A stretch of 64,000 bases of DNA from Escherichia coli (GTDB taxonomy: Bacteria > Pseudomonadota > Gammaproteobacteria > Enterobacterales > Enterobacteriaceae). Under the pieces are notes generated by a model. That model ran no database searches and had not been told where the DNA came from. It saw nothing but the letters and a program-made list of their open reading frames with translations. Position 1 is the first letter of the stretch; each line of letters opens with the position of its first letter. The stretch lies in the NCBI RefSeq assembly GCF_050320075.1, contig NZ_CP190018.1, one strand, 5' to 3'. Position numbers and translations under genes: made by a program. Shown here one piece after another: positions 48,764 to 60,829 of the stretch.

Positions 48764-48778
48764 TGGTGGAGCTGGCGG
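48764..48778. repeat. attR-side core repeat (copy of last 15 nt of ssrA)
   Basis: TGGTGGAGCTGGCGG identical to 60467-60481; extends to ~23 bp with one indel. Confidence 0.85.
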
Positions 48779-48839
48779 AGTTTGAATAAATGATGTATTG
48801 CTTTGATTTTTAATGATTTTGTTTAATTCAGTTTTTGTA

Positions 48840-48859
48840 CGTATACCTAATCGTATACC
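48840..48859. repeat. Two direct CGTATACC motifs just inside attR (putative integrase arm-type sites)
   Basis: CGTATACC at 48840-48847 and 48852-48859; the same 8-mer and its complement recur four times next to the int promoter at 60305-60352. Confidence 0.5.
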
Positions 48860-48947
48860 AATGGCTGTAAGTTAATGTGAAATGAAAGCGCATTTTTACT
48901 TGGATTGATGCTATATCGTACAGAAAAAAATTTTTTTTTCGAAAGAA

Positions 48948-49040
48948 CTGTTCACACTGTTCACCTTTCATTTTTCTCTTTTAATTTCAGTGTGATAACG
49001 GGTGAATATACGGTGAAGGGTGAACAGTGGATTGTTCACC
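48948..49040. repeat. Iteron cluster (TGTTCACC / GGTGAACAG), crr-like, downstream of the alpha gene
   Basis: CTGTTCACA 48948-48956, CTGTTCACC 48957-48965, degenerate GGTGAA at 49001 and 49012, and inverted pair GGTGAACAG(49019-49027)/TGTTCACC(49033-49040). Confidence 0.75.
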
Positions 49041-49090
49041 TTCGGGGAATTCAGGGATAAAAAAAGACCGGCAGATGCCGGTCAGGTGGG

Positions 49091-59076: not shown

Positions 59077-59094
59077 ATATGATCCTTGTTCAAA

Positions 59095-60282
59095 TTAAAG
59101 AGTGGTTTGCAATCCCCACCAATTCATTAACTCTATACGTTGTTCTAAATAGGTACTTCTATTGTAAGCTTTTCGAACCTCATTCCTCTCGGAATGCGCC
59201 AATGCTGCTTCAATAACATCAGGATTAAATTCTGCTTCGTTCATTGCCGTACTGGCAATTGATCTTAGTCCATGGGCCACTAACTTACCGCCATAACCTA
59301 TTCTCTTCAAGGCAGCGTTTGCCGTCTGACTGTTCATCGGCTGTTTTGGATCGTTTCTGCTCGGGAAAATATGTTCACGGTGACCACTGATAGGCTTCAT
59401 TACTTCCAAAATACCTAAAGCCTGAGGTGACAAAGGGACAATGTGTTCACGTTTAGCCTTCATTCGTTCGGCGGGAATCGTCCAGAGTTTGGCCTCGAGA
59501 TCGATCTCGACCCACCGAGCACCAGAAGCCTCAGAAGGGCGCACTAGGGTCAGGAGCTGCCACTCGATAAGACAGCGAGTCGGAACAGACAGATTCGACA
59601 TTACCAGAGAACGCATCAGCTTAGGTAATTCTTCGGGTCGTAGCGTGGGCATATTCTGCTTTTTGGGTTTCTCAAATGCCATTCCAACACCTGATGCTGG
59701 ATTTGCATCAATTAGACCAGTGTTTACGGCATAAATCATTATCTCGTTAATGCGCTGTACCAGACGACGTACCGTCTCTAGCGCGCCACGTGCTTTGATT
59801 GGTTCGAGGGTTTCAACAAGTGTTCGGGCTTTGATTTGCTGAACAGGGAGCTCACCGATGGCAGGTAATACATCTTTTTCCAGGGAACGCCAAATGTCTT
59901 TCGCGTAATCAGGGGTAACGCTTTTGCTTTTTATCTGGAACCAGTTGGTCGCAACAGTCGAAAAAATACTGTCTAGAGCTATCTGTTGTTGTTCTTCGAT
60001 AAATTCAGCTTGAACTTGTGGGTCTATACCATTAGCCAACAAAGCAAGGTAATCCGCTCTTAACCGTCGAGCATCAGCAAGTGAAAGGGCGGGGAAAGCA
60101 CCAAGCCCCATCATTGTCCGCTGTTTTGTTGCTGGACGTTGATAACGGAAACGCCACAACTTCTTACCGTTCGTTTTAACGAGCAGAAAAAGGCCATCGC
60201 CATCATGTAACGTTAGATCCTTTTCTAACGCTTTAGCGCGCAGAACTTCGGTGTTGGTCAGGGGGCGTGTTGTTCTTGCCAC
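59095..60282 (-). CDS. P4-family tyrosine integrase
   Basis: 395-aa ORF, GTG start with AAGGAG SD; N-terminal arm-binding-like LTNTEVLRAKALEKDLTLHDGDGLFLLVKTNGKKLWRFRY; C-terminal HGLRS..R..Y catalytic region; adjacent to the ssrA 3' end. Confidence 0.9.
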   Translation of the reverse strand: MARTTRPLTNTEVLRAKALEKDLTLHDGDGLFLLVKTNGKKLWRFRYQRPATKQRTMMGLGAFPALSLADARRLRADYLALLANGIDPQVQAEFIEEQQQIALDSIFSTVATNWFQIKSKSVTPDYAKDIWRSLEKDVLPAIGELPVQQIKARTLVETLEPIKARGALETVRRLVQRINEIMIYAVNTGLIDANPASGVGMAFEKPKKQNMPTLRPEELPKLMRSLVMSNLSVPTRCLIEWQLLTLVRPSEASGARWVEIDLEAKLWTIPAERMKAKREHIVPLSPQALGILEVMKPISGHREHIFPSRNDPKQPMNSQTANAALKRIGYGGKLVAHGLRSIASTAMNEAEFNPDVIEAALAHSERNEVRKAYNRSTYLEQRIELMNWWGLQTTL

Positions 60283-60304
60283 TGTGGCCGCTCCTTCATG
60301 AATT

Positions 60305-60352
60305 GGTATACGTGTTTAGGTATACATCCTACCGTATACCTAAACGTATACC
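60305..60352. repeat. Four GGTATAC(G)/CGTATACC motifs in the int promoter region (putative integrase arm-type sites)
   Basis: GGTATACG 60305-60312, GGTATAC 60319-60325, CGTATACC 60333-60340 and 60345-60352; same motif as at 48840-48859. Confidence 0.5.
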
Positions 60353-60466
60353 AATAATCACTGGATTTAGCTGGATATCCTCGGACAATGGTAGACACAA
60401 AAAAGCCCGCAGAGCTTGTGCCATGCGGGCTTTCAGGATTTCTCCGGACGTATCCGGAAGAGCAAG

Positions 60467-60829
60467 TGGTGGAGCTGGCGGGAGTTGAACCCGCGTCCGA
60501 AATTCCTACGTCCTCGGTACTACATGCTTAGTCAGTCTTTACATTCGCTTGCCAGCTGCGGACGGACACGCCACTAACAAACTAGCCTGATTAAGTTTTA
60601 ACGCTTCAACCCCAGGCAGGGCTTCCACGCGATCTCTTTTGGGTTTGACCTCTCTTGATCCCCGTCCTAAGAGCGGAGGCTAGGGAGAGAGGGCTCTAAG
60701 CAGGTTATTAAGCTGCTAAAGCGTAGTTTTCGTCGTTTGCGACTATTTTTTGCGGCTTTTTACGAGGCCAACCGCCCCTCGGCATGCACCTTGGGTTTCG
60801 CAAATCCCGTCGAATCCAGAATCAGCCCC
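60467..60829 (-). ncRNA. ssrA: tmRNA (SsrA), 363 nt
   Basis: Minus strand reads GGGGCTGATTCTGGATTCGACGGGATTTGCGAAACCC..; tag ORF GCAAACGACGAAAACTACGCTTTAGCAGCTTAA (ANDENYALAA*); 3' end ..GCCAGCTCCACCA. Confidence 0.97.

Follow-up and report, generated by a model that had tools for sequence, protein, structure and literature searches.

A probable P4-type satellite with an IntA-like integrase at ssrA of Escherichia coli, and its candidate HEPN-STAND-TPR defence gene

The segment between positions 48764 and 60481 of the window, the 64-kb stretch of Escherichia coli DNA analysed here, is very probably a complete satellite of the P4 type that carries an IntA-like integrase and is inserted in the last 15 nucleotides of ssrA. 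It is made up of three modules: a core in common with phage P4, an integration module specific for ssrA, and an AT-rich cargo in the hotspot that extends from psu/cos to int. All seven components of SatelliteFinder Type A are present when judged gene by gene against P4, and outside the element the window contains ordinary backbone of the chromosome, from the gab operon to ypjA. Elements of this type are already known and are common in E. coli, and it is only the cargo gene that is of some interest.

The boundaries of the element are marked by an exact 15-mer, TGGTGGAGCTGGCGG, which is a direct repeat of the 3' end of ssrA (the tmRNA gene, 60467-60829, minus strand). One copy, at 48764-48778, is a perfect duplicate of the ssrA end and forms the core of attR; the other, at 60467-60481, is the final 15 nucleotides of ssrA itself and forms the core of attL. 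Similarity around the repeat reaches 23 nt at 87% identity. A previous reading of the sequence alone had proposed that this repeat bounds an element of about 11.7 kb, and the empty site of E. coli strain JCH767 bears this out. In that strain ypjA directly adjoins ssrA, and its sequence at the 15-bp core runs from the left flank of attR straight into the right flank of attL, with both junctions matching to the base. Because the empty site reproduces the junction at the core, the boundaries are real and a chance repeat is excluded. With its perfect attR core, the element should leave a wild-type ssrA behind on excision. The predicted circle would be 11,703 bp, compared with 11,624 bp in P4. Arm-type integrase sites are found inside both ends, as two tandem copies of CGTATACC on the attR side (48840-48862, plus strand) and three exact copies on the attL side (60305-60355). 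These are all five of the exact copies in the 64-kb window, each adjoining an att site, which is far above chance. Directly after the ssrA 3' end the element supplies a terminator-like hairpin (60403-60417, minus strand), which may act as a replacement terminator for ssrA.

The core is close to P4 throughout, with positions 48922-56080 of the window aligning to 4469-11624 of the P4 genome (NC_001609 / X51522) at 98.5% DNA identity. On the minus strand it encodes the primase-helicase alpha (49091-51424, 777 aa, six substitutions relative to P4), orf106 (51439-51759, 106 aa, DUF5375, a protein identical to that of P4), orf151 (51895-52350, 151 aa, four substitutions), the helper derepression protein epsilon (52343-52630, 95 aa, one substitution), orf199 (52623-53222, 199 aa, two substitutions, annotated as Icd-like in relatives) and the AlpA-family excision and regulatory protein Vis (53219-53485, 88 aa, one substitution). 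On the plus strand are the genes, identified by comparing their translations with P4, for capsid size determination, sid (54039-54773, 244 aa), the Ogr/Delta activator of helper late genes, delta (54770-55270, 166 aa), and polarity suppression and capsid decoration, psu (55344-55916, 190 aa). Vis, epsilon and alpha are intact with at least 99% amino acid identity to P4, and the psu, delta and sid operon is present and intact with 97-99%. The lengths of these nine ORFs had been likened to those of P4, and comparison with NC_001609 confirms that both lengths and gene order are identical.

All nine core ORFs are full length, and their translations contain no internal stops or frameshifts when set against NC_001609. 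Insertions or deletions relative to P4 occur at just three positions, all of them non-coding. A total of 74 codons differ from P4 and 50 of these differences are synonymous, which argues against decay. The suggestion that the element is not a decayed prophage is therefore upheld by the P4 alignment, in which alpha, sid and psu show neither truncation nor frameshift.

The RNA genes and cis-acting sites of P4 are likewise recognisable. The P4 CI immunity RNA, detected as the Rfam C4 antisense RNA with a score of 74.9 bits, lies at 52875-52962 on the minus strand, where orf199 overlaps the immunity region, and there are no nucleotide differences from P4 across P4 positions 8168-8584. Its target sequences, which match the Rfam families isrK and c4-a1b1, are at 53070-53160 on the same strand. 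The replication origin (ori, 53765-53868) contains six exact copies of the type-I iteron TGTTCACC, with three further copies in the cis replication region (crr, 48926-49045, plus strand), a frequency far above chance. The terminator of alpha (49059-49083, minus strand) is identical to the P4 t-alpha. The cos region spans 56039-56116, with similarity to both P4 and P2 cos stopping near its right end; the 19-nt cohesive end GGCGAGGCGGGGAAAGCAC at 56081-56099 is identical to that of P4, and 69 bp around it have 90% identity to P2 cos. This site is thus predicted to be cut by a P2-type terminase. Both cos and the iterons had been picked out by the sequence-only reading and proved to be present. 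A 15-nt piece of cos also occurs within int, where it encodes a conserved GAFPA motif, and we take this to be chance.

The integration module differs from that of P4. The tyrosine integrase (59095-60282, minus strand, 395 aa) is of the IntA/PRK09692 type, matching PRK09692 with 581 bits as well as phrog_1, and is 62% identical to IntA of the K-12 prophage CP4-57 and 37% identical to P4 Int, for which our translation gives 439 aa (the record annotates AA 1-440). Other P4-like elements that are located at ssrA and carry different cargo have an integrase sharing 93% identity with that of this element. Vis is essentially that of P4, while Int and attP belong to the other, IntA-type lineage. P4 integrates at leuX and the element at ssrA, with different arm sites, and in place of the gop-beta-cII genes of P4 the element has a single 908-aa gene. 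An integrase directed to ssrA rather than leuX, together with different cargo, had been expected from the sequence and is what we found. The region from crr to cos, the CI RNA, the ori iterons and the cos end are common to the two, but positions 1-4290 of P4 are missing from the element except for 31 bp at cos. We rejected the possibility that the element is P4 proper on the basis of the 37% integrase identity, the ssrA site, the lack of gop-beta-cII and the single crr repeat.

Given these components the element would be functional and could be mobilised by a P2-like helper. CI-RNA immunity would keep it dormant until a P2-like helper allowed its excision, replication and entry into small capsids. 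In such a cycle alpha would replicate the element together with ori and crr, epsilon would derepress the helper and delta would transactivate it, Sid and Psu would build and decorate the small capsids, and the helper terminase would cut at cos.

An alternative is that the element is intact in sequence yet effectively immobile, a domesticated P4-derived defence island that is kept for its cargo. We regard this as improbable, although several observations point in its direction. The crr contains type-I iterons in just one 120-bp repeat, in place of the two repeats plus 60-bp spacer of P4, so that half of it is missing relative to P4 and to the closest relatives, which have both repeats and are 180 bp longer. 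One repeat is probably sufficient in P4, and a search of the literature on this point returned nothing usable. Vis is of the P4 type while Int and attP are of the IntA type, and there is no P2-like helper prophage within the 64-kb window. However, the genome CFSAN061771 apparently has a single-repeat crr too, being collinear with the element in one piece. The seven core genes, cos, ori, the immunity RNA and the att cores are all intact with mostly synonymous substitutions, and the size of the circle is within 1% of P4. The combination of this integrase with a P4 core is also widespread with swapped cargo, implying ongoing mobility and recombination. A satellite that can still be mobilised therefore remains the reading we prefer.

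Comparison with CP4-57 shows that the two elements share an attachment site and little else. In K-12, CP4-57 occupies the same attB at the 3' end of ssrA, beside ypjA. The two have their 15-bp core in common, and the CP4-57 integrase is a related member of the P4 family (62%); these points would favour treating the element as a variant or remnant of that cryptic prophage. CP4-57 is however 22 kb in length with entirely different gene content, and the element lacks the yfj genes (yfjP-Z and others), abpAB, rnlAB and alpA-yfjI and instead contains 7.2 kb with 98.5% identity to P4. The alignments refute this possibility, whose probability we consider negligible. The earlier description of CP4-57 content as having been replaced does not hold, as the element and CP4-57 are alternatives for a single attB site. 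The attR core of CP4-57 in K-12 is one base short, and its excision therefore inactivates tmRNA (PMC10107115). The perfect attR core of the element predicts, in contrast, that its excision would be harmless.

The GC content of the modules is sharply different, at about 57%, 47% and 33%, which might suggest a chimeric assembly of P4 core, foreign integrase and AT-rich cargo, but this is close to impossible as the full arrangement is found in seven independent complete genomes and the framework in more than 100, and the gene order is repeated in satellites of Yersinia and Pantoea. Among 5,426 complete E. coli genomes, 407 have this integrase adjoining ssrA and 142 have the ypjA-attR-crr-alpha junction. 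Many genomes contain the framework with varying cargo, and the genes in the slot encode NACHT, SIR2 or hypothetical proteins. Satellites resembling P4 have been documented at the tmRNA hotspot of E. coli (Hochhauser 2023, PMC10121019), as has the variable hotspot between psu and int (Rousset 2022, PMC9122126). The element shares with these tmRNA-hotspot satellites (PMC10121019, PMC9122126 and Moura de Sousa 2023, PMC10085698) its locus, its framework and the position of the hotspot right after the conserved cos, and nothing of substance differs.

The cargo is a single gene of about 33% GC (56350-59076, minus strand) that encodes a protein of 908 aa and is the only gene in the gop-beta-cII slot. 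A hairpin just downstream of it (56303-56334, minus strand) is a likely terminator. The protein is predicted to contain a Swt1-like HEPN domain (residues 1-160), a STAND NTPase (180-345) and a helical and winged-helix region (347-491), followed by TPR-like repeats at 496-835 and, at 839-907, a small beta domain. To this protein we aligned 58 homologs, and across all 59 sequences the Walker A motif (GGxGKT, G207-T212) and Walker B aspartate (D300) are invariant. The same is true of the arginine, asparagine and histidine of the HEPN Rx4-6H motif, which reads R102-N-Q-I-S-H107. The helical repeats match TPR sequence profiles with E-values down to 7e-25, and a Foldseek search with the full-length model ranked Apaf-1, CED-4 and NLRP9 highest, with E-values of 1e-7 to 1e-6. 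A stretch of 16 nt in the gene is identical to part of the 5' portion of tmRNA; it is missing from the Yersinia and Pantoea homologs and we take it as chance.

Profile databases recognise little of the protein. Pfam detects the NTPase core alone, and weakly (AAA_16, nSTAND1), and a Pfam scan of the N-terminal domain found nothing with either the single sequence or the homologs taken member by member. Searches of PADLOC, PHROGs and NCBIfam gave nothing above P-loop noise. There was no match to the AVAST or NLR models of PADLOC, the set used here for named Avs families, and the only hit was an 18-bit P-loop match to PDC-S27. The "HEPN-TPR" system of Rousset et al. (pFR83) was rejected because it is a different protein, and Crouga, Bandua, Aernus, Toga, Reve and Hailong, systems of the P4 hotspot from a 2026 preprint, do not fit in architecture, judging by their descriptions.

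From its predicted domains and model the cargo is most likely a candidate antiviral receptor of the Avs/NLR-like kind, acting as a single protein. As in Avs/NLR-like STAND proteins, an N-terminal effector-like domain precedes the STAND NTPase and C-terminal helical repeats, and the protein is encoded by a single gene that lies on mobile elements or close to restriction systems. It differs from them in having the extra C-terminal beta domain. Other STAND proteins of the hotspot have nuclease, SIR2 or TIR effectors (PMC9122126), while the effector of the cargo is HEPN-like. In such a system a ligand derived from the phage would be bound by the region of the TPR and beta domain; oligomerisation of the STAND NTPase would follow, uniting the HEPN domains into an RNase, so that infection is aborted. 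The combination of Swt1-like HEPN, STAND, TPR and S1/cold-shock domains has been predicted previously to be a conflict system (Anantharaman et al. 2013, PMC3710099). A homolog in Klebsiella adjoins McrBC and a type I restriction-modification system, and several other homologs have no obvious defence island around them.

The gene is also present in ssrA-type P4-like satellites of Yersinia and Pantoea, in the slot adjacent to the integrase, with 59-60% identity; in the Yersinia satellite that was compared the corresponding values are 75% for the integrase and 60% for alpha. Tentatively, and with rather less than even confidence, we propose that the cargo is an experimentally uncharacterised single-gene immune receptor, combining a Swt1-like HEPN RNase, STAND NTPase, TPR and a C-terminal cold-shock/S1-like beta domain, which is kept in the slot across Escherichia, Yersinia and Pantoea, unlike the fast-swapping genes of the P4 hotspot. 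The additional domain, which resembles nucleic-acid-binding domains, could mean that RNA is sensed or targeted, either in place of a phage protein or alongside one. The accession of the cargo in the nearest relative, WP_089620504, is entered as "hypothetical" in the P4 hotspot gene list (Table S1A of PMC9122126), and in the literature on P4-satellite hotspots we found no record of this cargo having been tested.

As a satellite the element is one more case of a very common type with the expected variable cargo slot. By combining an unusually P4-identical core with a non-P4 integrase it nevertheless offers a clean natural test for the compatibility of P4 Vis with integrases of the IntA type, and the cargo, as a widely distributed HEPN-STAND-TPR protein, is a reasonable candidate for defence screening.

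In a megablast search against phage records, P4 was the sole extensive match for the element. Direct alignment places window positions 48922-56080 on P4 4469-11624 at 98.5% identity, with 31 bp more matching the P4 left end past the cos junction. All annotated P4 CDSs of the aligned interval are full length, starting and stopping as in P4 with no internal stops. The orf106 protein is identical to that of P4, while substitutions number one each in epsilon and vis, two each in orf199 and sid, four each in orf151 and delta, and six each in alpha (777 aa) and psu. Only three positions carry indels, all in crr and ori, and 50 of the 74 codons that differ from P4 do so synonymously, a ratio such as would be expected under purifying selection. 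SatelliteFinder Type A has seven required core components (int, psu, delta, sid, alpA, epsilon and alpha; PMC10085698), and a manual check found all seven in the element. The sequence-only reading had called this a complete-looking P4-like satellite; the identification is correct, and the P4 alignment contains no truncation or frameshift in alpha, sid or psu.

ARAGORN and Rfam both place ssrA, the tmRNA gene, at 60467-60829 on the minus strand. Its final 15 nt, TGGTGGAGCTGGCGG on the plus strand, have an exact second copy at 48764-48778, around which the likeness runs on imperfectly to 23 nt. In E. coli JCH767 ypjA directly adjoins ssrA, giving an empty site that follows the left flank of the window to attR and the window ssrA from attL on, with the switch falling within the 15-bp core. 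Because this site joins both flanks at the core, the repeat cannot be put down to chance, and the proposal that a direct repeat of the ssrA 3′ end bounds about 11.7 kb holds, with the exact 15-mer at both ends and the empty-site strain in agreement. The element measures 11,718 bp including both cores, and its excision is predicted to yield a circle of 11,703 bp, compared with 11,624 bp for P4.

At 395 aa, the integrase (59095-60282) shares only 37% identity with P4 Int, against 62% with K-12 CP4-57 IntA and 93% with the integrase of another P4-like element at ssrA; NCBIfam PRK09692 matches it with 581 bits. The P4 core is thus joined to a non-P4 integrase at ssrA, as had been suggested. The 64-kb window has five exact CGTATACC octamers, all next to an att core (two at attR, three at attL), and their layout resembles that of the arm-type sites of P4. 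Directly after the ssrA 3′ end, within the element, a terminator-like hairpin with a T-run (60403-60417, minus strand) stands in for the native downstream sequence.

K-12 CP4-57 (22 kb) has the same attB as the element but wholly different content. The K-12 attR core is one base short (TGGTGG-GCTGGCGG; positions 23473-23486 of the K-12 comparison locus, L005), whereas that of the window is a perfect 15-mer. Excision of CP4-57 in K-12 leaves ssrA deltaT357, which inactivates tmRNA (PMC10107115). Since the window attR core is perfect, excision of the element should restore wild-type ssrA, as in the empty-site strain.

The non-coding features of P4 are also present. Rfam places the P4 CI immunity RNA (its C4 antisense family) at 52875-52962 and the CI RNA target elements isrK and c4-a1b1 at 53070-53160, and the window sequence is nucleotide-identical to P4 across P4 8168-8584. 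Six copies of the type-I iteron TGTTCACC lie in ori (53765-53868) and three in crr, with about two matches per whole window expected by chance. The 19-nt cohesive end GGCGAGGCGGGGAAAGCAC lies at 56081-56099, and conservation around cos ends at about 56116, the same point where published P4-like elements turn variable (PMC9122126). Fifteen nucleotides of the cos core (GGCGGGGAAAGCACC, 56086-56100) recur inside int at 60088-60102, where they encode a conserved GAFPA motif; this identity is probably a coincidence. P4 crr consists of two 120-bp repeats with a 60-bp spacer, whereas the window has one repeat (48926-49045). Among complete genomes the closest, Ec-U3 and YZLc1-3, are exactly 180 bp longer in this region, and the loss looks like a deletion through recombination between the repeats still kept there, because the single window copy aligns to both, as expected. 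The loss also moves the circle size nearer that of P4.

Elsewhere in the window are a tRNA array (6087-6852) of Ser(GCT) and four Arg(ACG), overlapped by an antisense tRNA-Arg(TCG) call (6203-6274) made by ARAGORN only, without Rfam support, and likely a false positive. MicA sRNA (9630-9701, minus strand, Rfam 83.9 bits) and a CAT-anticodon tRNA (40808-40883, plus strand), which may be ileY-type rather than tRNA-Met, are ordinary backbone features.

As the sequence-only reading had noted, the nonessential cargo slot differs from P4: one 908-aa gene (56350-59076, minus strand) replaces the gop-beta-cII region. Its GC content is about 33%, compared with about 57% for the core and 47% for int. 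PADLOC, PHROGs and NCBIfam gave no match above P-loop noise, and Pfam gave AAA_16/nSTAND1 alone, weakly. In an alignment of the protein with 58 homologs (59 sequences), R102-N103-x3-H107, which is the HEPN Rx4-6H motif, is invariant, as are Walker A (G207-G208-x-G210-K211-T212), Walker B D300 and T329-S330-R331. The predicted domains are HEPN (residues 1-160), P-loop NTPase (180-345), helical and winged-helix (347-491), helical repeats (496-835) and a five-stranded beta domain (839-907), with TPRs confirmed by sequence profile. The best PDB matches of the full-length model in Foldseek are Apaf-1, CED-4 and NLRP9, and distant AFDB look-alikes of the N-terminal domain are named "Swt1-like HEPN", "cold shock domain-containing" and "CSD domain-containing". 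A predicted architecture of Swt1-like HEPN, STAND, TPR and S1/cold-shock-like OB fold was already listed in 2013 (Anantharaman et al., PMC3710099), and we found no experimental test of the Swt1-like HEPN + STAND + TPR + S1 architecture in the literature. A 2026 survey gives at least 90 defence-associated STAND families with names up to Avs24, of which Avs7, Avs8 and Avs10-24 were characterised by its own screen (bioRxiv 10.64898/2026.01.04.697583). A 16-nt stretch of the cargo CDS (57139-57154; TGATTCTGGATTCGAC, minus strand) is identical to 60809-60824, nt ~6-21 of tmRNA, probably by chance because it was not found in the Yersinia and Pantoea homologs.

Full-length homologs (~890-930 aa) that are 32-36% identical come from Klebsiella, Vibrio, Shewanella, Acinetobacter, Bacteroidota and others, and closer ones (59-60%) from Yersinia and Pantoea. 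The Klebsiella homolog adjoins McrBC and a type I restriction-modification system, and that of Acinetobacter has a SinI restriction-modification pair within a few kb; the remaining contexts examined were uninformative. In Yersinia canariae (L007:8781-18554) and Pantoea agglomerans (L014:8784-18566) the homolog sits next to the integrase, in the same slot as in the window, within ssrA-sited, P4-like, psu-less satellites. The Yersinia integrase, alpha and cargo are 75%, 60% and 59% identical to those of the window, so integrase and alpha diverged in step with the cargo, and the Pantoea cargo is 60% identical. That both homologs keep this slot suggests an unusually long-lived association between cargo and ssrA-type satellites, in contrast to P4 hotspots, where cargo is reported to be swapped rapidly.

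The functions of the P4 genes are established for P4 itself, and from shared gene identity we infer that they carry over to the element. CI RNA would hold the element silent. A P2-like helper, derepressed by epsilon and with its late genes transactivated by delta, would supply the morphogenetic genes. Sid would divert assembly to small capsids decorated by Psu, and replication by alpha would use ori and crr. The terminase of the helper would cut cos, and Int, possibly with Vis, would carry out exchange at the ssrA core. Ligand-triggered STAND oligomerisation of the cargo may activate a predicted HEPN RNase and lead to abortive infection.

Among 5,426 complete E. coli genomes, the integrase adjoins ssrA in 407, the ypjA-attR-crr-alpha junction occurs in 142, and the whole element including the 908-aa cargo in seven. 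In other genomes the cargo slot of the same framework is filled by NACHT, SIR2 or hypothetical genes. The tmRNA hotspot is a common integration site of P4-like satellites (Hochhauser et al., PMC10121019), and the psu-int hotspot was defined by Rousset et al. (PMC9122126); in their Table S1A the cargo of the nearest relative (WP_089620504) is entered as "hypothetical". The finding is therefore ordinary, since this kind of element is on record already, as are its integration site and even this instance; what interest remains attaches to the cargo, which is uncharacterised, and to two minor points, namely that crr is halved and that the attR core is perfect.
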